A stretch of 64,000 bases of DNA from Candidatus Omnitrophota bacterium (GTDB lineage Bacteria; Omnitrophota; Gorgyraeia; JAHJTE01): positions 4,288-68,287 of the forward strand of contig JBFMEB010000004.1 of the NCBI GenBank assembly GCA_040753675.1, written 5' to 3'. Under the pieces are notes generated by a model. It was not told where the DNA came from and did no database searches. It saw only the letters and a list, made by a program, of their open reading frames with translations. Below are positions 28,791 through 48,490 of the stretch, piece after piece. Position 1 is the first letter of the stretch. Every line of letters begins with the position of its first letter. Both the position numbers and the translations under genes were made by a program.

Positions 28791-29537
28791 TCAATATTTG
28801 ATTTGCAGATTGGTTTTCATTGTGCGCATTTTGGCAAGTTCCCACGAATATTCATAAAGATGCAAACCCTTGCTTACTGCGATAATCTCCCCATCTTGCA
28901 CGCCTATTTCGCTGGCCATATATTGTTTTACCAGTTGTAATCCACCTAGATTTGAAGGAAAGCCGCCCCATAAATCCCAAGAACGAAAATAGAGAACAAA
29001 GTGCAACTTCCCATAGCGGACGCGTGTATCAATTAAACGCAGGCAAGGTGGGTCTTGCAATTTTATATCTGAAGGCATACCAATCTCCATAATTGCCTGA
29101 TTAGTGCCATGGCCTTGCGTCTTGTATATCTTAATAACCTCTTCAACTTGGTTGACATTTAGCGGTAATTCCTTGTATTTAGCAGTATCTGTCTCTATCT
29201 TAACTTTAATGCGCGGGTCAACCAACCGCTCGCCATAAGTATAGTCTTCTGTTTCAGTTTTTGTTCCGGTCAATAGATAAGAAAGATAACCTTGCACATA
29301 ATCCATATCAGTCGGAGCAGGAATATTCATACCCTCAGGAATTATCGGTATAATCTGATGGCTGGGGTTTCTAACCCTTACTACGCAAAAATCAAATTCC
29401 AAGCGGCGCTGCCCCTCGTAACTTCCGCGCGTAATAGTATACACAAAGCCTTTTTCCAAAATAGCATTTAAGGTTTGAAACCAGGCGTCATCTAAATCAA
29501 AGGCATCAATAAAAACCGGATTTAATTGTTGGTCCAT
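28791..29537 (-). CDS. Thymidylate synthase family protein (short ThyA-like)
   Basis: 248 aa; YTYGERL, PPCL...GKL..LYFRSWDLWGGFPSN..........HLYEY. The Cys-containing motif aligns with the ThyA PCH...LYQRSCDVFLGLPFN...HLY active-site region. Confidence 0.55.
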   Translation of the reverse strand: MDQQLNPVFIDAFDLDDAWFQTLNAILEKGFVYTITRGSYEGQRRLEFDFCVVRVRNPSHQIIPIIPEGMNIPAPTDMDYVQGYLSYLLTGTKTETEDYTYGERLVDPRIKVKIETDTAKYKELPLNVNQVEEVIKIYKTQGHGTNQAIMEIGMPSDIKLQDPPCLRLIDTRVRYGKLHFVLYFRSWDLWGGFPSNLGGLQLVKQYMASEIGVQDGEIIAVSKGLHLYEYSWELAKMRTMKTNLQIKY

Positions 29538-30451: not shown

Positions 30452-31024
30452 TTAATCGGATAATGCTGCCAGTGCTATTCTTGCTACCTGTTTTTCCAGA
30501 CCAGGAAAATCTAAGATTTCACCCTTTCTATCAATCTTAGCAAATAATAATTCTCCGCAATACTGTGTATTAATGACTTGAAAGAAAAGCCTGACGATTT
30601 GCTTTGCATTTTCGAAAAATTCATTTTTAGCCGCAGCTGCTATTAAAATCAAAAATCCTTTTTTTCTTTTTATATCAGTTTTTCCTTTTCTGATCTTTGC
30701 CAGCCAGAATGGCTGCATACGGTCTATAAGCATCTTGGCCTGGGCAGTAAGGCTGCCAAAATAAATGGGCGAACCAAAAACTATTGCGTCAGATTCAATT
30801 ATCTCTTTATAAATTGGTCTTAGGTCATCTTGTAAAATACAACATTCATCTCTATCGCAACCTCCACAGACCTGGCAAGGTTTAAAGTTCAGGTTATTTA
30901 TATCTATCTTGGTAACCCTAGCGCGACCTCCGATAGTCTGCCTGATTTTCTCTAAAACAATATCAGTATTGCCCCCAACTCTGGGGCTGGCATTTAGAAG
31001 TAAAATTAATTTTCCTTTATGCAT
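30452..31024 (-). CDS. Flavodoxin-like NAD(P)H-dependent FMN reductase / iron-sulfur flavoprotein family
   Basis: 190 aa; KLILLLNASPRVGGNT, a Cys cluster CQVCGGCDRDECC, and FGSPIYFGS. Confidence 0.7.
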   Translation of the reverse strand: MHKGKLILLLNASPRVGGNTDIVLEKIRQTIGGRARVTKIDINNLNFKPCQVCGGCDRDECCILQDDLRPIYKEIIESDAIVFGSPIYFGSLTAQAKMLIDRMQPFWLAKIRKGKTDIKRKKGFLILIAAAAKNEFFENAKQIVRLFFQVINTQYCGELLFAKIDRKGEILDFPGLEKQVARIALAALSD

Positions 31025-31038
31025 ATAATCGCGCCTTT

Positions 31039-32556
31039 TTAAATTTTATTCATCCTTAATTGTTCTTTATCAATTTTACCTGATCTATTTTTAGGTAAGG
31101 CATCTCTAAATTCAAAATAATGCGGAATTTTAAAATGCGCTAAATGCTCGCGACAAAAATAACGTACCTCATCTTCGCTAAGAGAGCTGCCTTCCTTTAA
31201 TGCTATAAATGCCTTAGGAACCTCTCCGCGTAAGCTATCTTTCACGCCGACAACAGCAACTTCGCAAACACCAGGATGTTTTTGTATTACTGCTTCGACT
31301 TCCGGCTCAAAAACAATTTCACCGGCAACCTTAATCATCTCTTTTTTTCTTCCTACAATATAGAGAAATTTTTCTGCATCAAACTTACCTAAATCACCTG
31401 TGAAAAACCAGCCATTGCGCATTACCTGTTTAGTAGCTTCTGGGTCCTGGTAATAACCGTCTGTTACCACCCAACCACGAACAGCTATTTCTCCAACTGT
31501 GCCTATGGCAACCTCTTTATCTTCCTTGTCGAATATTTTCACCTCTATCCAAGGCGCAGGTATTCCTACGCTTTCGATCTTTTTTGAATTAATTGGCAAA
31601 ACTGTAGTAGGAGCGTTTGTTTCAGTCAGACCCCAGCCGTTGACTAATACTACGTTCGGGCAAAATTGATTAAATTTACGAAGCGCATCAGGAGAACTTG
31701 ATGCGCCAAAAGTGACGATCCAGCGCAGGTGAGACAAATCAAAACTTTCAAATTCTTTTAATTGTAGGACTGCATAATACATTGAAGGTACAATCCAGAA
31801 ACAAGTTATCTTATATTTTTGGATATTTTTTAAGAATTCCAAAGGTATAAATCTCTCCATTAAAACTATTGTTATCCCATAGAATACACAATTTTGCAGA
31901 TAGATTAAACCTCCAGTATGAGAAAATGGCAAAGCGCAAAGGGCAATGTCTTCCTCTTTTAATTCGACAAAAAACTCCATAGATTTTGGCGCGGCTGTCA
32001 ATTGTAAGTAATTTATTAAGACGCCCTTGGGTTTACCTGTTGTGCCTGATGTGTAAAAAATTATTGCATAATCTTTATCGCTTGCCGCAACCGCGGGTGG
32101 ACTATCCTCACCTTTTCGTAATAACTCTTGAAAAGCTAAGAATCCTTCTGAATTTTCAGCGCAGACTACAATCTGTTTCAAGCTTGGGCACTTTTCCTTG
32201 ATAGCGGCTAGTGAAATATTCTGCTTAGGCTTAATAATCAGCAATTTTGCCTGAGAATGCGTTATGCAGGAAACAACCTCTTCTTCGGTAAGCATAAAAT
32301 CCAACGGAACGCAAGTTGCGCCAGCGCACCATAACGCTAAATAACTATAGGCATATTCTAAACAATTAGGCAGATAAATAGCTATTATTTCAGATTTATT
32401 TATTCCTATTTTTTTTAGAGCGCTGGCCAGCTTAAAAGCCGAAGAGCGAAGCTGGCTAAAAGTTACTGACTCTTCTTTAAAAATTATTGCCTTTTTGTCA
32501 GCAAATTTCTTTGCTTTTTCATCTAAGATATTAGCAATATTCATAATCCATACCAA
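31039..32556 (-). CDS. AMP-dependent synthetase/ligase (acyl-CoA synthetase)
   Basis: 505 aa; YTSGTTGKPKGV AMP-binding motif and a C-terminal GKIDKEQL. Confidence 0.8.
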   Translation of the reverse strand: MVWIMNIANILDEKAKKFADKKAIIFKEESVTFSQLRSSAFKLASALKKIGINKSEIIAIYLPNCLEYAYSYLALWCAGATCVPLDFMLTEEEVVSCITHSQAKLLIIKPKQNISLAAIKEKCPSLKQIVVCAENSEGFLAFQELLRKGEDSPPAVAASDKDYAIIFYTSGTTGKPKGVLINYLQLTAAPKSMEFFVELKEEDIALCALPFSHTGGLIYLQNCVFYGITIVLMERFIPLEFLKNIQKYKITCFWIVPSMYYAVLQLKEFESFDLSHLRWIVTFGASSSPDALRKFNQFCPNVVLVNGWGLTETNAPTTVLPINSKKIESVGIPAPWIEVKIFDKEDKEVAIGTVGEIAVRGWVVTDGYYQDPEATKQVMRNGWFFTGDLGKFDAEKFLYIVGRKKEMIKVAGEIVFEPEVEAVIQKHPGVCEVAVVGVKDSLRGEVPKAFIALKEGSSLSEDEVRYFCREHLAHFKIPHYFEFRDALPKNRSGKIDKEQLRMNKI

Positions 32557-34025
32557 TAATTAACCAGCGGCTTGGAATCTTTGGATTTATCAGTCACCAG
32601 GGTTTTTAATCGGGTGTATTCCAAAAAACCTTCCCGGCCTAATTCCTTGCCAAAACCGCTCTGCTTAAATCCGCCGTAAGGTAACTCATTATAAAACATT
32701 CCATAGGTATTAATCCAAACTATACCCGCATCTATTTTACCAGCCAATTCTTTGGCTTTCGAGATATCTTTTGTCCAGATACAGAGCGCTAACCCAAAAT
32801 CAGTTGAATCTGCCAACCGGACAGCCTCTTCTTGATCAGAGAATTTGCCTAAAGTTACCACTGGACCAAAAACCTCTTGCTTAAAAATTGCCATTTCCGG
32901 TGTTACTTCCTCAAATATAGTTGGCTCAAAGAAAAATCCCTTTTTTAACTTCGCATCTTTAGGGATCTCGCCCCCCCAAAGTAATTTAGCGCCATCTGCC
33001 TTGGCCTTATTAACATAGTCTAAAACTTTTTTACGCTGCTCATTAGAGATTAAAGGCCCCATCTGGGTCTCATGGTCTAGGCCCTCTCCCAATTTAATAC
33101 GCTTAGCCTTCTCGCTAAATTCAAATCTAAATTTATCGTATAAAGCATCCTCAACAAAAATCCTAGACATCGCCGTACACATTTGGCCCTGATTTAAAAA
33201 TATAGAACATAAAGAGCCGTTAACCGCAGCTTCTAAGTCTGCATCTTTAAAGATTATGCTCGCCGACTTACCGCCTAATTCCATAATCAGTTTCTTTACC
33301 TGATTCGCAGACGAGCTAATAATTTCTTTGCCGACTTCGTTACTGCCAGTAAAAGAAACCAAATCCACTCTTTTGTCCGAGCATAGAGCCTTGCCGATTC
33401 TCTCTCCGCTTGCGTTAATAATATTCACTGCCCCTTTAGGCATTCCAATCTTATCAATAATTTTGGCTAATTCAAAAACACTTAAAGGCGTCAAGCTCGA
33501 TGGTTTTAAGATAACCGTGTTACCAGCAGCAAGTGCCGCAGCTAATTTCCAAGAAGCTATTAATAATGGATAATTCCAAGGCACGATTAAGACTGCGACT
33601 CCCAAGGGCTCTCGGATAAGCCCGCCTTCTGCTTGAGAATCTAGCTTTAATGTATTCTCTACTAAAAAATTTTCCAAATTATTGGCAAAGTATTCAAACG
33701 TTTTTGCCGCAGAAGGGATATCCATAAAAGTCGATTCCTTAATCGGCTTACCTGTATTTAAAGTCTCCAGATTTGCCAGTTCAGCTGCATTCTCCAGAAT
33801 TGCTTGGGAAATTTTTAAAAGAAAATTTTTGCGCTCTTCTAAAGATATTGTTCGCCAAGGCCCTTCGTCAAAAGCTTTACGGGCCGCATCAATGCTCGAA
33901 TAAATTTCGCGTTCGCCAGCTACTGCCACTTCGGCTATTAAATCGCCTGTGCTGGGATTGATAATCTTGCTCCAATTTCCAGAATCCTTGAACTGGCCAT
34001 TAATAAATAAACTGAAACGTCTCAT
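32541..34025 (-). CDS. NAD(P)-dependent aldehyde dehydrogenase
   Basis: 494 aa; ELGGKSA, catalytic Cys in QGQMCTA, and the typical ALDH length. Confidence 0.9.
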   Translation of the reverse strand: MRRFSLFINGQFKDSGNWSKIINPSTGDLIAEVAVAGEREIYSSIDAARKAFDEGPWRTISLEERKNFLLKISQAILENAAELANLETLNTGKPIKESTFMDIPSAAKTFEYFANNLENFLVENTLKLDSQAEGGLIREPLGVAVLIVPWNYPLLIASWKLAAALAAGNTVILKPSSLTPLSVFELAKIIDKIGMPKGAVNIINASGERIGKALCSDKRVDLVSFTGSNEVGKEIISSSANQVKKLIMELGGKSASIIFKDADLEAAVNGSLCSIFLNQGQMCTAMSRIFVEDALYDKFRFEFSEKAKRIKLGEGLDHETQMGPLISNEQRKKVLDYVNKAKADGAKLLWGGEIPKDAKLKKGFFFEPTIFEEVTPEMAIFKQEVFGPVVTLGKFSDQEEAVRLADSTDFGLALCIWTKDISKAKELAGKIDAGIVWINTYGMFYNELPYGGFKQSGFGKELGREGFLEYTRLKTLVTDKSKDSKPLVNYWYGL

Positions 34026-35035
34026 TATTTTATACTCACCTCTTTAAATAACGCGAATAATTTGCTGAACGGCACATACCAACGGGAGAGCTTGCCGAGT
34101 TCGCCTTTTAATTTCATCTTGCCTTGCATAACCGCAACAAAAGGATCGAGTTTGCCTAAAAATACCAATTTCCAAATATCAGCCGGAGCAGAAATTATAA
34201 ACGGCGCATTGTCATTGAAATCTAACTTTTTAATCTCGCCTTTTTCAAAAGAGAATTTAAAGGCATTATCTGCGCCGTCTATCTTAATCGCCAACTCTAA
34301 GGTCAAGTCTAACTCCTTGCCTTTATTGCGGATATATTCGTCTTTATTAACCAAATCTACTATTGCCTGAATATGCTCCTTAGAGAACATGGTATAAATA
34401 TTATCGCTGCCTAACGTCTCTTTCAATTCCTTATCAAGCTCATCCAGAATTCCTTTCTTAAAAATCCTAGCCACTGCTACTACTTTTACTGCCTCTTCCA
34501 AAGTTTCGATTAAACTCAGCGCATCTTTAAAATTCTGGGCAATTGAAACCACGCCGTGATTCTTAAGCACTACCTGGTTATTACATTTTAACGCCTCGAT
34601 TACAAGTTCAGGCCTGCTAACAGCCGGTGTGTCCTGTTCGATAACCGGAATGTTACCTAAAGAAAGCTTGGTTTCAAAAGTTAAGGCTTTAATATCAGAG
34701 TAAAGGGCAAAATAGGCATTTATTAAAGCCGGGTGGCAATGCACAATAACCTTATTATCAGGAAAGCTTTTATATACAAGATGGTGCAGCGGAAATTCGC
34801 TGGTAAGTCGGCTGTTTGCTAAATCTTGCGGCCTATTTAGATTTACCTTGATGATATCATAATTTTTTAAGTCTGATAGTGAGGCGCCGGTTGAGGTAAC
34901 CAGTATATTATCCTGGTCTAACTTAGCGCTTAAGTTTCCCGCGCGGCCGACCACTAAGCGCATCTGGTATAGTCTTTTTCCTATATAAATTATTTCCTCT
35001 TTCAGCTCTTTTTCCCTGCCAAAAAACATATTCAA
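34025..35035 (-). CDS. Class II aldolase/adducin family protein fused to a C-terminal SCP2 sterol-carrier domain (candidate methylthioribulose-1-phosphate aldolase)
   Basis: 336 aa; N-terminal LVVGRAGNLSAKLD...HCHPALINAYF (class II aldolase metal ligands) and a C-terminal KLDPFVAVMQGKMKLKGELGKL (SCP2). Confidence 0.7.
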   Translation of the reverse strand: MNMFFGREKELKEEIIYIGKRLYQMRLVVGRAGNLSAKLDQDNILVTSTGASLSDLKNYDIIKVNLNRPQDLANSRLTSEFPLHHLVYKSFPDNKVIVHCHPALINAYFALYSDIKALTFETKLSLGNIPVIEQDTPAVSRPELVIEALKCNNQVVLKNHGVVSIAQNFKDALSLIETLEEAVKVVAVARIFKKGILDELDKELKETLGSDNIYTMFSKEHIQAIVDLVNKDEYIRNKGKELDLTLELAIKIDGADNAFKFSFEKGEIKKLDFNDNAPFIISAPADIWKLVFLGKLDPFVAVMQGKMKLKGELGKLSRWYVPFSKLFALFKEVSIK

Positions 35036-35955
35036 ATCTCCAAATAAATATGCTTAGTAATCAAATCCCTGGGGGTAATATCAAAAGCAGGATAATATGC
35101 CTTTATCCCTTTCGGGGCAAGCCGAACCCCGTCAAAATTTAATAATTCCTTTTGCGGCCTAATCTCGATTTTAATATCTTTACCGGTTTTTGTTTTTGAG
35201 AAAGGAGGACATAAAACATAAAAGGGTATCTTAAAATGGTTGGCTAAAACCGCTATCTGATAAGTCCCGATTTTATTGGCAATGTCGCCATTCTGCGCTA
35301 AATGGTCTGCGCCAACAATAACCTTATCAATCTTACCCTCTGACATAACCTGGCCTATCATATTATCCGTAATTAAGGTAACCGGGAAATCCTCTCTTTT
35401 TAATTCCCAGGCGGTTAAGCGCGAACCCTGTAAATAAGGTCGAGTCTCCGGAACAAAGAAACTAACCTTTTTATTGTCTTTTCGGCAAAATTCTCCTATA
35501 AGAGGCATAAGCCCGCTGACATTGCAATAGGTCAATATCACATCATTATTTTTAATCAAAATACTTGCTTTCCTTGCCTGCTCTATGCGCTTACTTTTAA
35601 GCATTTCTAAAAATCCGAATATATTTTTTTCCAGATCAGCTCCTGATTTAACCCAGCCTAAAACTAAATCAGTTAGATATTTAAAAGACAATGTTGGCCG
35701 GCTCGTATTTATTGCCTTGGCAATATGCTCTAAATGCGAAAAACTCCTATCCTTAGCTAATTCTAAAATAAAAACATACATTACCAAAAGCACCTGGCCT
35801 ACTGCGCGCGTCTTCATCTCTTTTATAGCCTTAACTGCCTGTTTATAATCCTTTATTTTTATATAGGATAATTTAAATGGGAGGCTAGTTTCATCTAAGA
35901 CATATATAATATTACCCTTTAACTGAACTGGCCAAAAAAGCGGCGATAGTCTCAT
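35032..35955 (-). CDS. mtnA: S-methyl-5-thioribose-1-phosphate isomerase (eIF-2B alpha/beta/delta family)
   Basis: 307 aa; IF-2B family fold with VIVGADHLAQNGDIANKIGTYQIAVLANHFKIPFYV. Confidence 0.8.
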   Translation of the reverse strand: MRLSPLFWPVQLKGNIIYVLDETSLPFKLSYIKIKDYKQAVKAIKEMKTRAVGQVLLVMYVFILELAKDRSFSHLEHIAKAINTSRPTLSFKYLTDLVLGWVKSGADLEKNIFGFLEMLKSKRIEQARKASILIKNNDVILTYCNVSGLMPLIGEFCRKDNKKVSFFVPETRPYLQGSRLTAWELKREDFPVTLITDNMIGQVMSEGKIDKVIVGADHLAQNGDIANKIGTYQIAVLANHFKIPFYVLCPPFSKTKTGKDIKIEIRPQKELLNFDGVRLAPKGIKAYYPAFDITPRDLITKHIYLEI

Positions 35956-36701
35956 TTGCCCTCAAGTCTTTTTACAGTTTCTAAAGCAATTTCTATTAAT
36001 TTACTTTCCGCCATATAATAAAGCGGATTCATAAAGCCCATCTCTCCGGTAATCACATTATCGCTTACTGCCAAAATAGAGCCAGCTTTAATCTTGTAAA
36101 CTGCGGCAATAGTTAATAGACTTGATGATACCATATCTACGGATATTGCACCCATTTTTCGTTTTGCCTCAACTACCTCTCTGGTTTCTCGCAATAACGC
36201 ATCCGTTGTCCAAACAATGCCCCGATGGATATTCGTGCCTAAATCCTTTGCCACGTTAAAAAGTGTATCTGAAATTTTCTTATCTGCGGCTGTTTTGAAA
36301 CTATTATCAACATAATAAGGCGTAACCCCGTCTCCTCTTATAACCTCGTCAGCAATTACCAAATCGCCAATCTTTATATCTTCGCTCAATGACCCGCAAG
36401 TTCCTATGCGTATAATATTACTGATTTGCGCATTACACATGACTTCTGCTGTAATAGCTGTATCAGTAGAAAACCTTCCGCCATTCATTGCTGTGATTTT
36501 AATCCCCTGATATGAGCCGGTATGCATGGTATATTCCATAAAGGAAAAGTTTCTGACCGGATTTTCTAATTTTTTAATCAATACCTCTAATCTGTCTTTT
36601 GGCCCAGGAACAATTGCGTATTTACCAACATCCTGCGGCCGCAACTGCACCATATCAGTTAAATCTTTTCCAGTCAGATGAATATCCTTTTTCATCTCCA
36701 T
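35952..36701 (-). CDS. Nucleoside phosphorylase family 1 protein (candidate 5'-methylthioadenosine phosphorylase)
   Basis: 249 aa; PNP/UDP-1 fold (YAIVPGPKDR, IRIGTCGSL, DMVSSS). Assignment as MTA phosphorylase is by context, next to mtnA and the aldolase. Confidence 0.6.
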   Translation of the reverse strand: MEMKKDIHLTGKDLTDMVQLRPQDVGKYAIVPGPKDRLEVLIKKLENPVRNFSFMEYTMHTGSYQGIKITAMNGGRFSTDTAITAEVMCNAQISNIIRIGTCGSLSEDIKIGDLVIADEVIRGDGVTPYYVDNSFKTAADKKISDTLFNVAKDLGTNIHRGIVWTTDALLRETREVVEAKRKMGAISVDMVSSSLLTIAAVYKIKAGSILAVSDNVITGEMGFMNPLYYMAESKLIEIALETVKRLEGK

Positions 36702-37103
36702 TACTTTCTCCTTATAATTGTCTACTAATATTAAGCGGATTTAGCGGGTCCTGCCGAGCCTTGTTTTCGTAGCAACGCTACTCAAATCAAGTCTCGTCAC
36801 CCGCTAAATTAACCTTAATGAAACTGGCAATTTTCGAGCATTTTACAATTGACTTGGCAAGTTTTGAGCAAGACGTCAAAAATTCTTCTCTATTTTTACT
36901 TCCCCAAAGATGAAACTGGCAATTTTCGAGCGAATAGAGATTTTAGCCAAGGAAGCTTGAGCATTTCGGGAATCCCGTACTTTTGGATGGCGAGGATGTT
37001 TGAGTCCGTCCTGGCGAAAGCCGACGGACGAGTTCCGCAGCCACCGAAATGCGAAAGACCCTTGGCGTTAAAAAATCGAACTGAAGCGAGAAAATTGCCA
37101 GTT
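36702..37103. promoter_or_regulatory. 400-bp non-coding leader/spacer with candidate structured RNA and a 19-mer repeat (AAACTGGCAATTTTCGAGC x2 direct and x1 inverted)
   Basis: 11-bp stem ATTTAGCGGGT...ACCCGCTAAAT encloses GTAGCGTTGCTAC immediately upstream of the phosphorylase start. A GC-rich hairpin GTCCGTC..GACGGAC lies near 37000-37060. The track ORFs 36849-37124 (+) and 36896-37111 (-) overlap each other and are probably not coding. Confidence 0.4.
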
Positions 37104-38012
37104 TCATCCAAGCACCCTCTCTAAATTCCCTCCTAAAATATCTTCTTTATCTTCTTGTTTTATAGCCAAATCTTTGACTGCCTTAATTGAACCAATTATA
37201 TCCTTTTTTGCTGGCCAGTCGCTACCCCAAAGAAGATGTTTGGGTCCTAATAATTCTAAGGCGGAAAGGAAATTTGTCTTAGATATATCTCCGCTTGTAT
37301 CTACATAAATATTTTTTAAATAAGCAGTAGGGTTATCTTTCAAATCTTTTACGAAATTTATGCCTCTTAACATTTTATAGGTTGCGTCAAAACGCCCAGC
37401 AATATGGCAAGTAATTCCTCCAAAATAGGCAAATATAAATTTGACATCGCAATATTTACGCAAGATATCAGACATCAAAAGCTTTCCTATACAAATGGTG
37501 GTATCAAAGATATATTCAACTACCGGAGTAAGCAAGGGATCATTAACTCTTTCATAACCGATAGGATTAATTATCTGAGAGTGCACAAAAATTGGTATTT
37601 CTTGTTTCAGGGCAATGTCATATATAGGAATAAATGAATTATCATCCAAATATACGCCGTTATAGCTGCTAGCCAGACAGATTGCCTTAAATCCTAAGCC
37701 TTCTCTTGCGCGTTTTAATTCAACTATCATCTGCTCTCGGTTACCATCTGGTAAAACAGCAGCAGCAATGAATCTTTTAGGATAACGCTTAATAATCTTT
37801 GCTATATTATCATTATAAATATGGGCTAACTTCTCCTGCCCACCCAGTTTTAGATGCGCATCAGAAGTTGGATATGTTAACAGCGCCTTATCGATGCCTG
37901 CCTCATCCATCATCTTAAGATGGGCTTCTATATCTGACCAGGCCTTAGAAAAAAAGTGGGCATTTGCTACAATTTCTTCTGGCAACCAATGGCTATGGCT
38001 ATCAATAATCAT
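37104..38012 (-). CDS. Amidohydrolase-2 family metal-dependent hydrolase/decarboxylase
   Basis: 302 aa; N-terminal IIDSHSHW metal-binding HxH, a TIM barrel, and a C-terminal WGSDWP. Confidence 0.75.
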   Translation of the reverse strand: MIIDSHSHWLPEEIVANAHFFSKAWSDIEAHLKMMDEAGIDKALLTYPTSDAHLKLGGQEKLAHIYNDNIAKIIKRYPKRFIAAAVLPDGNREQMIVELKRAREGLGFKAICLASSYNGVYLDDNSFIPIYDIALKQEIPIFVHSQIINPIGYERVNDPLLTPVVEYIFDTTICIGKLLMSDILRKYCDVKFIFAYFGGITCHIAGRFDATYKMLRGINFVKDLKDNPTAYLKNIYVDTSGDISKTNFLSALELLGPKHLLWGSDWPAKKDIIGSIKAVKDLAIKQEDKEDILGGNLERVLG

Positions 38013-38404
38013 TTGTGGTCCGTGCTTTTTAGAATTCGCTCAATCATCTCTTTCTCATAAAGAGATTTTATTTCTTTTAAGCCTGCTCTTCCTAATACCT
38101 TAACTATGGCCTTTTCAATCGCCTTTAATTTAAATACTAGGAAACTATATTGCGGATGGAAAGCCTTATCCTCAAATTTTAAATTAAGCCCCTCTTTTTC
38201 CTTATTTTCGATATAAAGAGAAAACTCATCAATAAATTTACCTATTTCTTTTTTACTTCTGTGCCTTTTTAATTCTTTTAGCAAAAATTTATCAATCGAA
38301 AGTTGAGTAAATTTCCTCTCAATTCTGTCTAAGGATTCTTTAGTAGTCTTATACAACCAGATTAAATACCTTTTCTTTAAATCTTTTATATCTGCTTTTT
38401 CCAT
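38009..38404 (-). CDS. Hypothetical protein
   Basis: 131 aa, charged and helical. No motif recognised. Confidence 0.4.
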   Translation of the reverse strand: MEKADIKDLKKRYLIWLYKTTKESLDRIERKFTQLSIDKFLLKELKRHRSKKEIGKFIDEFSLYIENKEKEGLNLKFEDKAFHPQYSFLVFKLKAIEKAIVKVLGRAGLKEIKSLYEKEMIERILKSTDHK

Positions 38405-38407
38405 TTC

Positions 38408-38639
38408 AAATGAGCAGACAACTTATGGAAGCTTTAGCGACGTAAGTTGTAGACCTTCGGTCGTCTGCGAATTTGACCCAGCACTTATTTTACTGCCAGT
38501 CTTAGCATTAAAATTTTAAGTTTTATTAAAATAAAAACTTCCTTTTTATTACCCAGCTTTTTAGTAAAATAAGTGCTGGGTAAGTTCGGCCAGACAACTT
38601 ATGTCGTCCTTTATGATCCATAAGTTGTGGCCTCACTTA
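38408..38639. mobile_element. MITE-like repeated intergenic element, copy 3
   Basis: Termini AAATGAGCAGACAACTTATGGAAG ... CATAAGTTGTGGCCTCACTTA, with an internal long stem ACCCAGCACTTATTTTAC / GTAAAATAAGTGCTGGGT. It abuts the start codon of the 38009-38404 gene. Its TAA (within CACTTATT) is the stop codon of the SDR gene. Confidence 0.6.
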
Positions 38640-39413
38640 TTCCTTAGGATGGTCTTGTTTATAGGGTATTACTGGTTTTGTCCAAGGCGTCTGCTGGTTA
38701 ATTACGGCAATTTCCAAAGGGCAGACATTGGCCGGAACAGTTAAGGCAAATCTTACCGCATTCTCAATCGCTTCCGTAGTCATAAGGCGCGAGCTATCGG
38801 TAGTTATTTCTTGCAATTTCCCGGTAAGGTCTGTGTCGGTTACACCCGGCAATATCGAAGTTACTTTTATGCCGTGGTCGCGTAATTCCCAAAATAGCCC
38901 TTTAGAAAAAGCCCGTAAACCGACTTTCAAGGAACTATAGACAATGAAATTCCTTGGTAAGGGATCGCAAAGAGTAGAACCGGAAACCATATTAATAATT
39001 GCACCCTCTTTGTTTTTTATCATATCATTTATGACTAAACGGATAAGCCGAACATAACCCAAATAGTTTGTATGGCTGAGTTTTTCAAAATCTTCAAGGG
39101 GCTGTTTTTCAAATGGGTACTGGCTAGAGACTCCGGCGTTGTTTATCAAGATATCTATTGAATGAAATTTCTCTTTAGTTTTATTAACCAAATTCTGGAG
39201 GTCTTCTAATTTAGTTACATCGCAAGGAATAGTTAAAATCTCTACTTTGTATTTTTTCTTAATTTCATCTGCTGTTTCAATTAGAGGGCCTTCCTGACGC
39301 GCGGCAAGACTCAAATTAATGCCTAAACTTGCCACGGTATTAGCTATGGCCTTTCCTATTCCCCGACTTGCACCGGTAATGATTGCGGTTTTTCCTTTTA
39401 GATTAACACTCAT
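38637..39413 (-). CDS. SDR family oxidoreductase (ketoreductase-like)
   Basis: 258 aa; TGASRGIGKAIA, NNAG, and the S...YxxxK catalytic spacing. Confidence 0.85.
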   Translation of the reverse strand: MSVNLKGKTAIITGASRGIGKAIANTVASLGINLSLAARQEGPLIETADEIKKKYKVEILTIPCDVTKLEDLQNLVNKTKEKFHSIDILINNAGVSSQYPFEKQPLEDFEKLSHTNYLGYVRLIRLVINDMIKNKEGAIINMVSGSTLCDPLPRNFIVYSSLKVGLRAFSKGLFWELRDHGIKVTSILPGVTDTDLTGKLQEITTDSSRLMTTEAIENAVRFALTVPANVCPLEIAVINQQTPWTKPVIPYKQDHPKE

Positions 39414-39428
39414 AATTCCTCCGATTTT

Positions 39429-40550
39429 TCAATTATTGCCTAATAATGGTTTTGTTAAGGATAGCAAACATACCAGGCATATACCAAAAATAACGAAACC
39501 AAAATTAAAATTCCTCTGCATCAATAAGCCGCCTAAGCCTACTCCGATGCTGCCGGAGAGGAAACGTATACTGCTGTTTAGACTTGCCGCTTCATTTAAG
39601 AATTCTTTTGGCAAATCAGTAAGCAAAGTCGAGATACCAGCGTGATTAAAAGTCCAACCCAGACCCCAGACAATCATAATCAGCGCTAAAACAATAATAG
39701 GCCATTTAGCGGTTAGTAAAAATATGCTGATAGTCATTAAGATAAGGCCTAAATTTACAATTTTTAGCCGTCCAACAAAATCAGAAAACCAACCACCCAA
39801 TACTTCTCCAAATATTCCACTTAAGCTTACCGAGGTAATAAGCATGCTAATTGACAATTGGCTAAAGCTGTATCTAACTGAAAAATAAACTCCTAACCAT
39901 TGCTGCAAGCCATGATAAAACAAACTAATTAAAAATATGTAGGCGAAGATAAAGATTATTTTCTTGGCTTTAAAGAGTGTTAAATAATTAAACTTAAAAC
40001 CAATGGCAATTTCTTTAAAACTTGGGAGATAAAAATAAATATGTATCCAGAGAATAAAACCCAATATCGCCGGGATTAAAAAAATTAGCCGCCAAGGTAT
40101 AAAACCAGTTAAAAATAGTCCTACGAGTGAAGCCACAAATGTACTTGAAAAAAAAGTGCCCACTAGCTTACCCCTATTAGTATCTGAAGCATAATGGGAA
40201 ATCAATATAAGAACAAGAGGTATAACCGAGGCGCCAAATAAGCCCATAAAGAATCTGGCAATAAAGAGCATATTTAGATCTTGAGAAAGAGCAGCTATGA
40301 GATTTGCTAAGGAAAACAGGAAAAAACAAACTAATTCTATTTTTTTTGCATCAATTACTCTAACCAATGGACCGTAAAAAAGCGCAGCCAGGCCATAAGG
40401 AAGCATGTAAAGCCAAATTATATTGCCGGCAATAAACTGTGAAGTTTTGAATTCCTGAGAAATCGATGGAATCAAAGCTGAACAGGCGGCAACATTAAAA
40501 GAAAGAAGCGCACCCTCTAAACAAAGTATTATAAATGTGGTTTTCTTCAC
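39429..40550 (-). CDS. MFS transporter
   Basis: 373 aa with about 12 predicted TM helices. Confidence 0.75.
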   Translation of the reverse strand: MKKTTFIILCLEGALLSFNVAACSALIPSISQEFKTSQFIAGNIIWLYMLPYGLAALFYGPLVRVIDAKKIELVCFFLFSLANLIAALSQDLNMLFIARFFMGLFGASVIPLVLILISHYASDTNRGKLVGTFFSSTFVASLVGLFLTGFIPWRLIFLIPAILGFILWIHIYFYLPSFKEIAIGFKFNYLTLFKAKKIIFIFAYIFLISLFYHGLQQWLGVYFSVRYSFSQLSISMLITSVSLSGIFGEVLGGWFSDFVGRLKIVNLGLILMTISIFLLTAKWPIIVLALIMIVWGLGWTFNHAGISTLLTDLPKEFLNEAASLNSSIRFLSGSIGVGLGGLLMQRNFNFGFVIFGICLVCLLSLTKPLLGNN

Positions 40551-40987
40551 TCGCCGGCTTCTTTTTCGATAACGGATTTAAAAATCTTTAAATTTTCCTG
40601 GGAATGCTTATTTATAAAACCCTCTATTTGGTTGTCATTGAATTTTGCTTTTTCATCCATCTGGAAATGCTGTATCCAAGTCATTTCTACGCCTTCCGGT
40701 TTAGGCGTATAAAGCCAGATAATCTTCATATATTTAAAAGGAAATTTTGGCTCTTCTCTTTCTGAATAAGTAAAATATTTTTCTTTAAAAAGCAGCCGCC
40801 AAGACTGCCAGGATTTATCCTCATCATCAGTCAGACGAAAGGTTATCTTGTTCCCTTCTTTTTTTAAAACCTCGGATTTTTTATATTCTCCACCAAATAA
40901 TTCTGTCCAGCGCGGTATATCATTAGATATATCAAAAACTTTATTGTAATCTGCATTGATGAGAATTGAATTACAGGTATGTCCCAT
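40547..40987 (-). CDS. SRPBCC (Bet v1-like polyketide cyclase/aromatase-type) domain protein
   Basis: 146 aa; size and beta-grip/helix pattern consistent with the SRPBCC superfamily. The domain call is by inference. Confidence 0.55.
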   Translation of the reverse strand: MGHTCNSILINADYNKVFDISNDIPRWTELFGGEYKKSEVLKKEGNKITFRLTDDEDKSWQSWRLLFKEKYFTYSEREEPKFPFKYMKIIWLYTPKPEGVEMTWIQHFQMDEKAKFNDNQIEGFINKHSQENLKIFKSVIEKEAGE

Positions 40988-41008
40988 GAATTTCTCCTTT
41001 CAGTAAAC

Positions 41009-41809
41009 TTATAAGATAGCGACCACCCTCGCCCAGCCAGCACCGGCATTTCTAATCTTTACCGGAAAGCAACTTACCTTAAATCCAAAGGCTACAGGTA
41101 TTTTATCCAGATTAGCCAATCTTTCAATATGCGCATATTCGCGCCTGCGTCCTAAAAAATGCGATGGCCAGAGAACAGATTTATTTTTGGTTTTTAGAAA
41201 TTCCGTAAACATATCCGGGCAAGGTCGATCAAGGCCCAAGGTATCAATACCTATCATTTTAATGCCAAAATCCAGAAGATATTCGATTGCTTCTGGTAAG
41301 ACGCCAACGTATTTATTCACATATTCAGGTTTTCCTATAAATTTATCAGCACCTGTATTAAATAAAATAATGTCTAGGGGCTTTAATTTATAATTAATTT
41401 TATTTAGCGCGTTAACCACATCTTTATGGTTAATAATCTCAGGATATTTTTTATACTTAAAATCCAAAACTACTCCATCGCAATAGCACCACTCTAACGG
41501 CAAATCATTTATATATTTAGAGGGTTTGCCTTCGGATTTGCTTCCATAGTGATATGGCGCATCAACATGGGTGCCCATATGTACTGAAGAATTTACAATC
41601 TCTAAAGAAAGGAGTTCCTCATCAGGAACATCACCCGGCGCTATTAATCTCTCGCCTCTTTTAAACTTTGCCTCAGATACCCTATCTTTACTCATCAGCA
41701 CCCAATTTAGATGTTCAACTCCCTGGCTGTGGCTTATCCGCTGGATATTCGCAGCATGAGTCTCATCTAAAGTATCGTCAATCGGCAGACTCAAGTCAAT
41801 TATTTGCAT
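41009..41809 (-). CDS. Cyclase family protein (kynurenine formamidase-like fold)
   Basis: 266 aa; hallmark HMGTHVDAPYH motif. Confidence 0.75.
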   Translation of the reverse strand: MQIIDLSLPIDDTLDETHAANIQRISHSQGVEHLNWVLMSKDRVSEAKFKRGERLIAPGDVPDEELLSLEIVNSSVHMGTHVDAPYHYGSKSEGKPSKYINDLPLEWCYCDGVVLDFKYKKYPEIINHKDVVNALNKINYKLKPLDIILFNTGADKFIGKPEYVNKYVGVLPEAIEYLLDFGIKMIGIDTLGLDRPCPDMFTEFLKTKNKSVLWPSHFLGRRREYAHIERLANLDKIPVAFGFKVSCFPVKIRNAGAGWARVVAIL

Positions 41810-42045
41810 TATGCACCTAATTTAAGATTAATAATCTTCTCGATATCATTAACACTCGAAAATTTTGTAACTTCTTTTGCGCTCAATTTAATATTAAATG
41901 CCTTCTCCAAAGCAATTACTGCCTCTACCATTTCCGTAGAATCAACGCCTAACCCAGACTCAAGGGCTATATCATCTTTTAATTCCTCAGGTCTAATCCT
42001 TAATAGTGTAATTAGGGTATCTTTTATTTTTGCTTTAGTATCCAT
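41809..42045 (-). CDS. Acyl carrier protein
   Basis: 78 aa; LGVDSTEMVE with a Ser at the phosphopantetheine attachment position. Confidence 0.85.
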   Translation of the reverse strand: MDTKAKIKDTLITLLRIRPEELKDDIALESGLGVDSTEMVEAVIALEKAFNIKLSAKEVTKFSSVNDIEKIINLKLGA

Positions 42046-42064
42046 ATATTTGTCTCCTTCAATA

Positions 42065-43540: not shown

Positions 43541-43658
43541 TCGCTAAAACGCAAAATAAGTTATTACAATATCTAAAATAACACCGCTAAATCGCAAAAA
43601 TTTATTTTGCGTTCTCTGCTGACTAAATTATATTTCTTGTAGTTTTGCGTTTTTGCGG
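43541..43658. repeat. Palindromic repeat spacer (CGCTAAAACGCAAAAT x2 direct, then ATTTTGCGTT / GTTTTGCGTTTTTGCGG inverted)
   Basis: Read directly between the rSAM start and the KS-beta stop. Confidence 0.45.
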
Positions 43659-44888: not shown

Positions 44889-45040
44889 ATTAAATGGTTA
44901 AACTCTAAACTCAAAACTCTAAATCCTAAATAAACCCAAAAGCAAAAATAAAAATGTCCAAAATAGCATTTTTGAGTTTTATGTTTTAGGTTTTGGATTT
45001 GTTTAGAGTTTAGGATTTGTGATTTAGGATTTAATTTCAT
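44889..45040. repeat. Heptamer-periodic palindromic array (AAACTCT/AAACTCA/AAATCCT direct, then AGGATTT/TAGGTTT inverted)
   Basis: Read directly between the KS-alpha and KS-beta genes. Confidence 0.5.
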
Positions 45041-46312: not shown

Positions 46313-46899
46313 TCTTCTACCCTTGTTACTTTAAAAACTATATTCCCTCCGTCTGGACAGGTAACTGTATCGATTGAGTCAGGGTCACTCATAAAGAAAA
46401 ATTTTGCGCCGAAATTAAGCGCAAAAAGCGCCGGGAACGCTGTATGGAATGCAGCTCCGCAAAAGTTAGGTATACACTTGAGGCCTTGAGTTTCCCATTT
46501 ATCTCCTACCTGGTAACCAAAGGTGCATTTGCCTTTTGCTTTAACCACCTCAATAAGCATCTTCTTAGGTTTGGGACCCTTGAAATTTTCATCTTTGGGA
46601 ATAAATTCGACTTTGCCATTTTTATCCAAAATTTCTGCCTTAAACTCTAATTTTCCACCGTCAGGGCAAGTAACCAATAAAGAACGCTGATTATCCCGAA
46701 AGGGGAATTTTGCGCCAAAACTTAAGGCATATATAACCGGAAAAAGAGCATGGGCGAGTCCTAAGCAAAAATGTTTTGGAGGATGAGTAAAATCTTCCAA
46801 AATTAACTCATCGCCTTTCTTATATCCGTGATAACAATGACCAGCAACTTCGTTTACAGTAAGTTTTAACTTTGGAAATGGTGAATTAATCTCGCTCAT
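46309..46899 (-). CDS. Hypothetical protein made of two tandem ~95-aa Cys/His-containing repeats
   Basis: 196 aa. Repeat 1 (..CYHGYKKGDEL...HFCLGLAHALFPVIYALSFGAKFPF....VTCPDGGKLEFK) aligns with repeat 2 (..CTFGYQVGDKW...NFCGAAFHTAFPALFALNFGAKFFF....VTCPDGGNIVFK). Confidence 0.5.
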   Translation of the reverse strand: MSEINSPFPKLKLTVNEVAGHCYHGYKKGDELILEDFTHPPKHFCLGLAHALFPVIYALSFGAKFPFRDNQRSLLVTCPDGGKLEFKAEILDKNGKVEFIPKDENFKGPKPKKMLIEVVKAKGKCTFGYQVGDKWETQGLKCIPNFCGAAFHTAFPALFALNFGAKFFFMSDPDSIDTVTCPDGGNIVFKVTRVED

Positions 46900-46900
46900 A

Positions 46901-47905: not shown

Positions 47906-47908
47906 ATT

Positions 47909-48438: not shown

Positions 48439-48453
48439 AGGCCTATCCTCTTT

Positions 48454-48481
48454 AAAATATAGTAAAATTTTACTATATTTT
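48454..48481. promoter_or_regulatory. 28-bp perfect palindrome AAAATATAGTAAAATTTTACTATATTTT (candidate PadR operator)
   Basis: Read directly. It lies between the padR stop and the first gene of the downstream cluster. Confidence 0.45.
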
Positions 48482-48490
48482 CCTATTTAG

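Follow-up and report, generated by a model that had tools for sequence, protein, structure and literature searches.

The DHAP shunt disposes of 5'-deoxy-nucleoside by-products of S-adenosylmethionine. A gene stretch from a Candidatus Omnitrophota bacterium encodes three enzymes of the kinds used by this shunt, followed by an aldehyde dehydrogenase (ALDH) and an acyl-CoA ligase, which raises the question of which nucleoside is consumed and what becomes of the aldehyde that would be released. The genes occupy positions 30452-36701, on the minus strand, of the window (the whole stretch of DNA analysed, 64,000 nucleotides). The six open reading frames originally predicted there are all present, with the families assigned to them:

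35952-36701, minus: PNP/UDP-family phosphorylase, 249 aa (PF01048 PNP_UDP_1, 129 bits)
35032-35955, minus: MtnA-family isomerase with IF-2B fold, 307 aa (PF01008 IF-2B, 195 bits)
34025-35035, minus: class II aldolase fused to SCP2 (PF00596 Aldolase_II, 117 bits; PF02036 SCP2, 30.5 bits, above the cut-off of 21.3)
32541-34025, minus: ALDH, 494 aa (PF00171 Aldedh, 550 bits)
31039-32556, minus: AMP-forming acyl-CoA ligase, 505 aa (AMP-binding and AMP-binding_C)
30452-31024, minus: Isf-like iron-sulfur flavoprotein (FMN_red PF03358, 71 bits; CX2CX2CX5C motif)

Adjacent genes overlap by 1-16 nt or are separated by 14 nt, which makes the arrangement operon-like.

Conservation of the module in Omnitrophota

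Gene presence was scored by tblastn in 86 related Omnitrophota loci from different species. The order PNP - isomerase - aldolase/SCP2 - ALDH recurs in these loci, where the tblastn ends of adjacent genes lie a median of 6-9 nt apart, and given this recurring order the grouping is beyond chance. The isomerase, aldolase and ALDH form an almost invariant set (conditional presence 76/78 for the isomerase and 64/66 for ALDH), and the phosphorylase (57/70) and ligase (27/40, within 10 kb) are usual members. Conservation of the gene neighborhood in relatives had been proposed as a check on the original prediction of an oxidative, CoA-activating tail. By these counts the ALDH and ligase are conserved neighbors, and the tail is thus a conserved feature of the related loci. 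The Isf-like flavoprotein gene, which had been counted as part of the cluster, is found in 0/86 related loci and is therefore a local addition outside the conserved cluster. The CX2CX2CX5C motif in this FMN_red protein matches Isf proteins.

A second clade of fusions (loci L081-L086), whose aldolases are 37-43% identical, has the order PadR - ligase - PNP - isomerase - aldolase/SCP2 - ALDH - B12-binding radical SAM. Therefore, the five core genes are contiguous there and a radical-SAM gene abuts them. In 5/6 of these loci the ligase gene immediately precedes the PNP gene. Some arrangements are less complete: L085 retains ligase - aldolase/SCP2 - ApbA - MFS without PNP, isomerase or ALDH, and a clade of ~10 species has the cluster without PNP. 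Both were counted against the reading that we prefer below.

Enzymes encoded by the module

The phosphorylase scores below every NCBIfam cut-off (bits/cut-off: Udp 125/280, DeoD 98/232, MTAP 23/275), with Udp and DeoD the best matches. It is thus not of the MtnP type, contrary to its earlier designation as a candidate MTA phosphorylase. Phosphate ligands R37, R98 and T101 and the purine-N7 aspartate D214 (in "SDN") are intact, and there is no Udp-specific insertion with Gln/Arg. The neighbor-subunit residues His4 and Arg43 are replaced by M17 and M55, the E-M-E motif is D189-M190-V191, and R76 is new. All 121 orthologues, and deep lineages as well, share these residues without change, and the protein is ~80% identical across species. 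M17 aligns with the 5'-OH-binding His of DeoD and Udp, whose residue roles come from E. coli PNP/UP structures; an invariant Met here fits a 5'-deoxy or 5'-thio substrate. However, loss of the ribose-binding Glu (E-M-E to D-M-V) and of the neighbor-subunit Arg means that the substrate could be unexpected. The protein is predicted to be a divergent, hexameric-type DeoD/Udp-like nucleoside phosphorylase outside the characterized subfamilies. A canonical MTA phosphorylase KO is reported in 70-99% of the class Gorgyraeia outside the order Pluralincolimonadales (171 complete-tier genomes; bioRxiv 10.64898/2026.06.07.730766); if the window belongs to this class, then the phosphorylase here is probably not MtnP.

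The isomerase passes the NCBIfam TIGR00524 subfamily model "S-methyl-5-thioribose-1-phosphate isomerase" (210 bits, cut-off 186) and falls below the MtnA equivalog (225, cut-off 279) and R15P isomerase (107, cut-off 314) models. It matches 1t9k, a probable MTR-1-P isomerase, at 4e-51. It retains the Cys in "YCN", the Asp in "GADH" and the 1-phosphate ligands, and its ATxxYGTALG loop carries a 5-aa deletion. From these features, we predict an MtnA-family enzyme converting an aldose-1-phosphate to a ketose-1-phosphate.

The fusion protein comprises an aldolase domain (aa 1-200), a disordered linker (aa 201-209) and an SCP2 domain (aa ~215-336), and its AF2 model has a pLDDT of 92 and a pTM of 0.84. 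Foldseek matched FucA-type aldolases (TM 0.85 on target), with DrdA (6btd) at rank 32, and the C-terminal domain matches the SCP2-type chains 3cnu and 3bn8. All 42 fusions, including those as low as 27% identity, share residues E80, H99, H101 and H160. Catalytic residues are intact in all three enzymes (phosphorylase, isomerase, aldolase), which together make up the DHAP-shunt-type trio that had been proposed. The fusion is real and, as the original prediction noted, unusual, and it is invariant across Omnitrophota; among the minority of members with a named source, all are Omnitrophota/Omnitrophica except two labeled "bacterium" and one Deltaproteobacteria. SCP2 is a lipid- or acyl-CoA-binding fold, and the C-terminal tail of FucA closes over the aldehyde side of its substrate. 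We infer that SCP2, at the same end of this aldolase, may form or guard the aldehyde side of the active site.

The ALDH contains the catalytic Glu (MELGGKS) and Cys (GQMCTA). Its best NCBIfam match is BADH (533 bits, below the cut-off of 669), and its nearest PDB structures are betaine aldehyde dehydrogenases (5eyu and relatives) and ALDH1/2. We propose that it is an NAD(P)+-dependent, non-acylating enzyme that oxidizes the aldehyde product of the aldolase to an acid. The ligase, with motifs YTSGTTGKPKG and SGKIDK, scores 439 against PRK06187 (cut-off 476) and matches FadD5, 4CL and oxalate-CoA ligase in the PDB (~1e-64 to 1e-68). It is assigned to the FadD/4CL/MenE class, and its proposed role is activation of the acid to a CoA thioester. 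A FadD-type rather than Acs-type ligase, the SCP2 domain and the SRPBCC protein encoded upstream would be unexpected for a C2 product.

A larger cluster with a radical-SAM gene

The cluster had been taken to consist of six genes, but its start is not at 36701; it extends upstream to ~48994. The module forms one arm of a fatty-acid/polyketide-like cluster that spans 18.5 kb, is headed by PadR and is conserved across Omnitrophota. The upstream features are as follows (Amidohydro_2, SDR, MFS and SRPBCC by Pfam):

36702-37103, no strand: 402-nt spacer between the Amidohydro_2 and PNP genes, a structured, repeat-bounded element
37104-38012, minus: Amidohydro_2
38009-38404, minus: conserved protein of 131 aa, function unassigned
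38637-39413, minus: SDR
39429-40550, minus: MFS
40547-40987, minus: SRPBCC
41009-41809, minus: PF04199 cyclase
41809-42045, minus: ACP
42065-43540, minus: B12-binding radical SAM
43659-44888, minus: CLF-like KS without Cys-His-His (KS_a/KS_b alignment)
45041-46312, minus: FabF-type KS
46309-46899, minus: TIGR04076 protein
46901-47905, minus: ApbA/PanE-like reductase
48181-48438, minus: 85-aa ORF, homologous to a cluster protein with only a weak DUF2621 mark
48491-48994, minus: PadR regulator

By tblastn, Amidohydro_2 is found in 58/86 loci, SDR in 57/86 (84% identity) and SRPBCC in 54/86 (80% identity), counts that are limited by the locus ends. The B12-binding radical-SAM gene is within reach in 34/38 loci. 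Distant Omnitrophota (L081-L086) carry the same gene set in another order, and cluster membership thus survives rearrangement across deep lineages.

The radical-SAM protein belongs to the B12-binding class, with BchE and HpnJ as best matches, and its hit list includes no similarity to known adenosylating enzymes. The upstream half resembles the anammox "ladderane" Cluster I (amxACP, amxFabZ, amxFabF2/amxFabFmut, radical SAM; bioRxiv 10.64898/2026.05.19.726425) in having an ACP, an intact FabF-type KS plus a KS lacking Cys-His-His, and a B12-binding radical-SAM protein. Ladderane calls by antiSMASH have been recorded in Omnitrophota MAGs (PMC9902471). However, the radical-SAM protein reaches only 70 bits with the ladderane-type model, whose cut-off is 360, no FabZ was seen here, and the available published text on anammox clusters does not mention a nucleoside module.

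Within the 402-nt spacer, the 20-mer CTCGAAAATTGCCAGTTTCA occurs three times, two direct and one inverted (0 expected by chance), and the predicted RNA fold has z = -5.1. An Rfam search of the spacer gave no match, and no SAM or methionine riboswitch was found ahead of the operon. The element is absent from the 86 related loci and, among those compared, is found in this genome only.

Substrate and products of the module

The best explanation, to which we give roughly an even chance, is a DHAP-shunt variant that would convert 5'-deoxyadenosine, and maybe also MTA, to DHAP and an acyl-CoA, and that is tied to a radical-SAM lipid-type pathway. We propose its steps from the families of the proteins, the catalytic residues that they retain and the gene order that the loci share. 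The phosphorylase would use phosphate to split a 5'-deoxy-5'-X-purine nucleoside into base and 5-X-5-deoxyribose-1-phosphate, which the isomerase would convert to 5-X-5-deoxyribulose-1-phosphate. The metal-dependent aldolase would then yield DHAP and X-CH2-CHO, which ALDH would oxidize to X-CH2-COOH and the ligase would activate to X-CH2-CO-SCoA. The most likely substrate would be 5'-deoxyadenosine (X = H) from the cluster's own B12-binding radical-SAM enzyme, in which case all five ribose carbons would be returned as DHAP and acetyl-CoA. A second substrate may be MTA (X = SCH3), which the bifunctional shunts of E. coli and R. rubrum also accept.

An accessory gene pair bears on the identity of X. 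In 31/86 relatives, genes for an LsrF-type thiolase and a Zn-dehydrogenase (ADH) lie directly beside the aldolase and ALDH genes; the LsrF orthologue (NF006081, 362 bits, cut-off 297) shares about half its residues by eye with E. coli LsrF (262 bits) and is absent from this window. In AI-2 degradation, LsrF converts 3-hydroxy-5-phosphonooxypentane-2,4-dione to DHAP and acetyl-CoA (PMC7828210, citing Marques 2014). LsrK, LsrG, LsrB and the transporter of that system are missing here, and the partner is instead the Zn-dehydrogenase. Chemically, the LsrF substrate should correspond to 4-dehydro-5-deoxyribulose-1-phosphate, although a link between LsrF and 5-deoxyribulose-1-phosphate was not found in the literature searched. 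ADH and LsrF together would therefore convert 5-deoxyribulose-1-phosphate to DHAP and acetyl-CoA, the same products as the aldolase/ALDH/ligase route if X = H. This agreement, together with the adjoining B12-radical-SAM gene, points to 5'-deoxyadenosine over MTA. However, ADH and LsrF need no ATP, so a parallel, ATP-costly route for the same substrate would be odd, and the two branches may handle different X groups.

The DHAP shunt of Rhodospirillum rubrum and extraintestinal E. coli (MtnP or MtnN+MtnK, MtnA, Ald2) likewise yields DHAP and a C2 aldehyde and is bifunctional for MTA and 5'-deoxyadenosine (PMC10986504), but here the phosphorylase is not MtnP-type, the aldolase carries a C-terminal SCP2 domain, ALDH and a CoA ligase are encoded where a host enzyme of the known shunt reduces the aldehyde to the alcohol, and the module is embedded in a radical-SAM/KS cluster. 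There is precedent for phosphorylase/isomerase/aldolase clusters acting on 5'-deoxyadenosine: the 5-deoxyribose disposal cluster DrdK/DrdI/DrdA of Bacillus thuringiensis and phosphorylase versions such as that of Clostridium phytofermentans use a phosphorylase or kinase, an isomerase and a FucA-like aldolase to convert the radical-SAM by-product to DHAP and acetaldehyde (PMC6079011). The aldolase here is distant from DrdA (phmmer 2e-11), and ALDH, ligase and SCP2 are not described there. The fluorometabolite pathway of Streptomyces cattleya (PNP FlB, isomerase, aldolase, fluoroacetaldehyde dehydrogenase), which leads to fluoroacetate, is a precedent in that it runs through these four reaction types in identical order, with X-acetaldehyde oxidized to X-acetate by an NAD+-dependent enzyme (PMC8945431). 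However, no fluorinase/chlorinase (SAM_HAT) gene is present among the window ORFs of at least 110 aa submitted to Pfam, the CoA ligase is additional, and the present organism is anaerobic and has Wood-Ljungdahl genes.

HpnH attaches a 5'-deoxyadenosyl group to diploptene. A possible but doubtful alternative is that the radical-SAM protein or another cluster enzyme similarly adenosylates a hydrophobic intermediate, whose ribose the module trims through R-CH2-CHO and R-CH2-COOH to R-CH2-CO-CoA; the adenosyl group would be a C2 donor, and the product would enter lipid assembly or be used by the KS/CLF-ACP machinery. A precedent is HpnG, which is homologous to PNP and acts on adenosylhopane (PMC13459092). 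Throughout the phylum the module stays linked to KS/CLF, ACP, B12-radical SAM, reductases, SRPBCC and MFS despite rearrangements, which is consistent with this route, as are fusion of SCP2 exactly at the expected aldehyde side, long-chain types as best ligase matches, the two Met residues and ribose Glu-to-Val change of the phosphorylase, and a PlsC-type acyltransferase between ALDH and ligase in 13 loci. However, the adenosylated intermediate is hypothetical, the radical-SAM protein is of the B12-binding class and shows no similarity to known adenosylating enzymes in its hit list, ALDH resembles short/medium-chain rather than fatty ALDH3 types, and the extent of LsrF identity suggests a methyl ketone, with R = H.

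A shunt specific for MTA, as in the methionine-salvage assignment of the original prediction, is unlikely. It would proceed via MTR-1-P and MTRu-1-P to DHAP and 2-(methylthio)acetaldehyde, then 2-(methylthio)acetate and 2-(methylthio)acetyl-CoA, a route that would be new, since it is not described in the literature searched. The enzyme logic is identical to that of the preferred shunt variant, known DHAP shunts accept both nucleosides, M17 suits a methylthio group too, and if ADH and LsrF take the 5-deoxy sugar, the aldolase branch could serve the methylthio sugar. However, nothing here is specific to methylthioadenosine: the MTAP score is far below its cut-off, most genomes of Gorgyraeia, the class to which the window may belong, are reported to carry a canonical MTA phosphorylase KO, a SAM or methionine riboswitch is lacking, and the cluster, linked instead to radical SAM, contains no MTA-producing enzyme or sulfur-recovery step.

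General nucleoside catabolism, in which a purine or pyrimidine nucleoside would pass through ribose-1-P and ribulose-1-P to DHAP and glycolaldehyde, then glycolate and glycolyl-CoA, would amount to a bacterial short form of the non-carboxylating pentose bisphosphate pathway of haloarchaea. The Udp and DeoD matches, a weak aldolase match (51 bits, cut-off 300) to NF053831, the model for haloarchaeal ribulose-1-P aldolase, and the view that Omnitrophota live on the biomass of other cells (PMC10066038) fit this idea. It is nevertheless improbable, given M17, the missing Udp insertion, an MtnA-type isomerase and no pentose/nucleoside transporter or kinase logic, and it leaves the linkage to LsrF and the radical-SAM/KS cluster unexplained.

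Finally, nearly all source-named loci are from one phylum and the first 80 are mostly 60-72% identical, but it is very improbable that ALDH, ligase and upstream genes merely sit beside the trio by inherited synteny in one lineage, because the downstream thymidylate-synthase-like, PilZ, GpsA and homoserine DH genes are syntenic in 0/86 loci, whereas the cluster genes remain linked in three or more distinct gene orders and in loci where aldolase identity drops to 37%.

Gene content and the described pathway

Six ORFs between positions 30452 and 36701 of the window lie on the minus strand, each overlapping or almost abutting the next. The ORFs and their family matches confirm the six-gene list of the original prediction.

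Genes at 30452-36701 (scores paired as score/cut-off)
35952-36701, minus: PNP_UDP_1 phosphorylase (PNP), 249 aa (PF01048, 129 bits)
35032-35955, minus: IF-2B/MtnA-family isomerase, 307 aa (PF01008, 195 bits; TIGR00524, 210/186)
34025-35035, minus: class II aldolase fused to SCP2, 336 aa (Aldolase_II, 117 bits; SCP2, 30.5/21.3)
32541-34025, minus: aldehyde dehydrogenase (ALDH), 494 aa (PF00171, 550 bits)
31039-32556, minus: AMP-forming ligase, 505 aa (AMP-binding and AMP-binding_C)
30452-31024, minus: FMN_red protein with an Isf-type Cys motif, 190 aa (PF03358, 71 bits)

The first five genes, hereafter the module, match the enzyme logic of the DHAP shunt (PMC10986504) and of the 5-deoxyribose disposal pathway (PMC6079011). 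Each part of the module is a member of a known family, and steps one to three are those of a known pathway. In the described systems, a 5-substituted ribose-1-phosphate is supplied by an MtnP-type phosphorylase, or by a nucleosidase together with an MtnK/DrdK kinase, whereas the protein found here is a PNP_UDP_1 member that is not MtnP. As in the shunt, where an MtnA/DrdI-type isomerase gene adjoins that of the aldolase, the two genes are adjacent in 76 of 78 loci.

The difference lies in the ending. In the shunt as described, the aldehyde is reduced to an alcohol or left to host enzymes, but here an ALDH and a CoA ligase are encoded instead, and this tail is, on gene content, the variant feature of the module. 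The module would combine DHAP-shunt logic with oxidation by the ALDH and activation by the ligase. The only described parallel of the oxidative ending is fluoroacetate synthesis in S. cattleya, which uses a PNP, an isomerase, an aldolase, and an NAD-ALDH (PMC8945431); the CoA ligase is added in the Omnitrophota module. No SAM_HAT halogenase (fluorinase/SalL) was detected with Pfam in window ORFs of at least 110 aa, or among the called genes of six deep-branching loci (L081-L086).

Assignment of the module enzymes

The phosphorylase scores below all curated cut-offs, including those for Udp (125/280), DeoD (98/232), and MTAP (TIGR01694, 23.1/274.85 bits). Assignments as MtnP, DeoD, Udp, HpnG, MTAN, futalosine hydrolase, or AMP nucleosidase were rejected because all fall far under their cut-offs. 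Among the families scored there is no characterised close relative, and orthologues carry the NCBI name "hypothetical protein."

Residues were compared by pairwise alignment to solved Udp and PNP chains, read against 121 orthologues and five deep-lineage orthologues. The phosphorylase retains three phosphate ligands and the Asp that contacts purine N7, and it is without the Udp-specific Gln/Arg insertion. The E-M-E motif of DeoD and Udp, which binds ribose in the structures of PNP and UP from E. coli, is invariantly D-M-V. Both residues contributed by the neighbouring subunit, in those structures a 5'-OH-binding His and a phosphate-binding Arg, are invariantly Met (M17 and M55), and a new invariant Arg lies in the GGRFS loop. 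The protein is ~80% identical between species. By these comparisons the phosphorylase is a separate, strongly constrained subfamily, with a purine-type base site and a predicted non-polar 5' side.

The isomerase scores under the MtnA equivalog cut-off (225/279). Its catalytic Cys (in YCN) and Asp (in GADH) align to Cys160 and Asp240 of MtnA from B. subtilis, and the ligands of the 1-phosphate are also kept. Five residues are deleted within a loop that three aligned MtnA-family chains conserve. R15P isomerase (TIGR00511), and with it the pentose bisphosphate pathway, was rejected by score (107/314). There is one IF-2B protein (307 aa) in the window's clade, whereas the deep-branching arrangement has two ORFs: an MtnA-like gene (325-338 aa) and then a short IF-2B ORF (147-181 aa) whose match to MtnA is confined to the C-terminal half (L081 8436-9941, L082 8474-9926, L084 8487-10023, and L086 8303-9785).

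The aldolase keeps the Glu and three His residues of FucA, which are invariant across 42 fusions down to 27% identity. Its class II fold is likewise conserved, and cleavage of the ketose-1-phosphate to DHAP and an aldehyde, as by Ald2/DrdA in the DHAP shunt, is predicted. Neither sequence nor structure searches grouped the protein specifically with DrdA. MtnB dehydratase and AraD epimerase gave weaker matches than the aldolases did, and the gene context favours cleavage. A confident AlphaFold model of the fusion (pLDDT 92, pTM 0.84) predicts a domain of the FucA type, joined by a disordered linker (aa 201-209) to a separate C-domain with an alpha/beta fold. By sequence, this C-domain matches two solved SCP2-type proteins (3cnu and 3bn8) and scores above the Pfam gathering threshold for SCP2 (PF02036). 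A database aldolase from a Candidatus Omnitrophota MAG is 100% identical to that of the window. The ALDH and ligase carry their catalytic motifs, and their nearest solved structures are generic relatives that indicate no substrate.

A larger cluster with conserved membership

A scan of species-representative genomes produced 187 relatives of the fusion protein, of which the best 80 loci were fetched. About two thirds of these 80 are labelled Omnitrophota/Omnitrophica, and most others come from MAGs submitted under the name "uncultured Planctomycetales" or "Planctomycetia." With L081-L086, which represent a second, deep-branching fusion clade, 86 related loci were available. Conditional frequencies were obtained by tblastn with the window proteins, each gene being scored only at loci that extend far enough to reveal it.

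Occurrence of window genes at related loci
Isomerase: 76 of 78 assessable loci
ALDH: 64 of 66 assessable loci
PNP: 57 of 70 assessable loci
Ligase within 10 kb: 27 of 40 assessable loci
Isf-like gene: 0 of 86 loci
All genes downstream of the Isf-like gene: 0 of 86 loci

The ALDH and ligase are therefore conserved neighbours, as originally predicted, whereas the Isf-like gene, which had been counted as part of the cluster, drops out of it.

Synteny extends upstream through genes for an Amidohydro_2 protein, a 131-aa unknown protein, an SDR (84% identity), MFS and SRPBCC proteins, a PF04199 "cyclase," and an ACP. Further upstream, the recurrent genes are those for a B12-binding radical-SAM enzyme (83% identity; 34 of 38 loci), two KS proteins, and a TIGR04076 protein. 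One KS is FabF-type with an intact Cys-His-His triad; in its paralogue Arg and Asp/Asn replace these residues, and the catalytic His is missing. By these residues, the two genes (43659-44888 and 45041-46312, minus strand) are a KS/CLF-like pair.

Among 1.84 billion cluster representatives, ~25 more full-length fusion clusters (at 50% identity) were found that are 29-42% identical. In a profile search, those with a named source were all from Omnitrophota/Omnitrophica MAGs, except one labelled Deltaproteobacteria. The deep lineages were examined at L081-L086 and in one further case for which there was no DNA. Their order is PadR, ligase, PNP, isomerase (with the small IF-2B paralogue), aldolase/SCP2, ALDH, B12 radical-SAM enzyme, an 84-95-aa protein (with only a weak DUF2621 mark), an unknown protein, an ApbA-like reductase, TIGR04076, KS, KS, ACP, cyclase, SRPBCC, MFS, and SDR. 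L081-L086 thus have the gene set of the window in a different order; the exception is L085, which has only PadR, ligase, aldolase/SCP2, an unknown protein, ApbA, and MFS. Three further members of this set have counterparts in the window, so the unit spans 30452-48994.

Window counterparts of deep-lineage genes
46901-47905: ApbA-like reductase
48181-48438: 85-aa ORF, homologous to the deep-lineage small protein, with no Pfam family of its own
48491-48994: PadR

A third gene order, with the radical-SAM gene between those for SDR and Amidohydro_2, occurs in a clade that has no PNP gene in the cluster. Because membership is kept through three gene orders while flanks are never shared, the comparison argues for functional coupling of the cluster genes rather than merely inherited order.

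The PNP-less clade comprises L013, L038, L039, L047, L053, L061, L065, L070, L071, and L077. Seven of these loci have no ligase within 10 kb, and the remaining three end too soon on the downstream side to show one. Gain and loss of PNP and ligase may go hand in hand. In L038 and L047, a class I methyltransferase takes the place of PNP.

Of the genes that make up a ladderane-type cluster, a KS/CLF-like pair and an ACP are present. The pair resembles the anammox amxFabF2/amxFabFmut heterodimer (bioRxiv 10.64898/2026.05.19.726425). The window's radical-SAM protein scores far below the ladderane-type B12 radical-SAM model (TIGR04072, 70/360), and no FabZ (compare ladderane amxFabZ) was found in the window cluster. 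antiSMASH "ladderane" calls are on record in Omnitrophota MAGs (PMC9902471) and may represent the cluster's upstream half.

Substrate and role of the module

The module could act on a nucleoside whose 5' substituent is H (5'-deoxyadenosine) or SCH3 (methylthioadenosine, MTA). We favour 5'-deoxyadenosine because of the radical-SAM enzyme in the cluster, the predicted non-polar 5' pocket of the phosphorylase, and a clue from LsrF. In 31 of 86 loci, a Tdh-like Zn-dehydrogenase and a DeoC/LacD-family protein directly adjoin the aldolase or ALDH (for example, L007 2860-4707, L038 12485-14389, and L081 986-2838). The DeoC/LacD-family protein passes the curated LsrF model NF006081 (362/297) in relatives such as L007. 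By eye, about half of its aligned residues are identical to those of E. coli LsrF (262 bits), and it keeps the catalytic Lys (in "VVKTYW"). These loci carry no other lsr gene, and the window has no homologue of the pair. In the PNP-less clade, an LsrF gene is present at all loci except L065, L070, L071, and L077.

PMC7828210 describes how LsrF, with CoA, splits 3-hydroxy-5-phosphonooxypentane-2,4-dione into DHAP and acetyl-CoA. From its structure, we infer that this substrate is the 4-keto form of 5-deoxyribulose-1-phosphate. Thus, the Zn-dehydrogenase would oxidize 5-deoxyribulose-1-phosphate, the isomerase product derived from 5'-deoxyadenosine, to the 4-keto form, and LsrF would convert this to DHAP and acetyl-CoA. 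With H as the substituent, the aldolase, ALDH, and ligase would yield the same two products. No link of LsrF with 5-deoxyribose was found in the literature searched.

MTA is a possible second or alternative substrate. The original prediction of a methionine-salvage variant stands as regards its conserved ALDH and ligase tail, but evidence specific to MTA is absent: the phosphorylase is not MtnP, and no riboswitch or leader was detected ahead of the PNP gene (Rfam at gathering cut-offs over the whole window; E <= 10 on 36650-37150). Moreover, a canonical MTA phosphorylase KO is reported in 70-99% of Gorgyraeia outside Pluralincolimonadales (bioRxiv 10.64898/2026.06.07.730766), which is relevant if the window is from Gorgyraeia. 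The literature searched held nothing relevant on enzymatic conversion of methylthioacetaldehyde to methylthioacetate and its CoA thioester.

The module might instead be biosynthetic rather than for waste disposal. The cluster's radical-SAM enzyme would adenosylate a hydrophobic intermediate, from which PNP, isomerase, aldolase-SCP2, ALDH, and ligase would trim the ribose. We regard this as unlikely, but it is kept alive by an ATP-costly route alongside the dehydrogenase and LsrF, an SCP2 fusion that a C2 product does not account for, the SRPBCC protein, the FadD-type ligase, and loss of the ribose-binding Glu from the phosphorylase. HpnG offers a precedent (PMC13459092), and only that; neither SHC nor HpnH was seen. 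In the furthest form of this reading, which is likewise unlikely, the 5'-deoxyadenosyl group of SAM would donate two carbons, and the resulting R-CH2-CO-CoA would go into a lipid or polyketide, specific to Omnitrophota, that the KS/CLF-ACP genes build. The lipid tail would then be bound by the SCP2 domain.

The literature searched contains no description of the conserved ALDH and CoA-ligase tail, the aldolase-SCP2 fusion, the phosphorylase subfamily, the proposed dehydrogenase and LsrF branch, or obligate embedding in a phylum-wide KS/CLF-ACP-B12 radical-SAM cluster. If the preferred reading, with 5'-deoxyadenosine as substrate, is correct, the DHAP shunt would gain a complete-carbon ending in DHAP and acyl-CoA, and two unrecognised subfamilies would emerge, the aldolase-SCP2 fusion and a DeoD/Udp-like phosphorylase whose 5' pocket is non-polar. 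The data also suggest an undescribed thiolytic branch for 5-deoxyribulose-1-phosphate, which would provide a testable function for the many "orphan" homologues of LsrF that lie outside lsr operons. The 18.5-kb cluster is characteristic of this uncultured phylum, and the constant pairing of a SAM-by-product module with radical-SAM, KS, and ACP genes provides a concrete handle on the cluster product.

In the spacer that separates Amidohydro_2 from PNP (36702-37106), the 20-mer CTCGAAAATTGCCAGTTTCA occurs three times, twice in direct orientation and once inverted; the inverted copy overlaps the stop of the Amidohydro_2 gene. The spacer folds far better than shuffled sequences (z = -5.1), Rfam gave no match for it, and none of the 86 related loci carries it. 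It resembles a small MITE-like insertion bounded by repeats and is genome-specific among the loci compared.

The remainder of the window holds housekeeping and Wood-Ljungdahl corrinoid genes. The latter (58439-63918, minus strand) include two CdhD/AcsD-like corrinoid iron-sulfur protein genes, a Pterin_bind methyltransferase, a RACo activase, and a CooC-like ATPase. Their presence indicates that the host is an anaerobe, and by this gene content it is of the acetogen type. A 248-aa protein (28791-29537, minus strand) is weakly thymidylate-synthase-like (methanogen-type model, 98/175), and its gene has no synteny in relatives. The UvrB gene (8229-11876, minus strand; 1215 aa) is split by an intein with LAGLIDADG homing-endonuclease and HTH domains.
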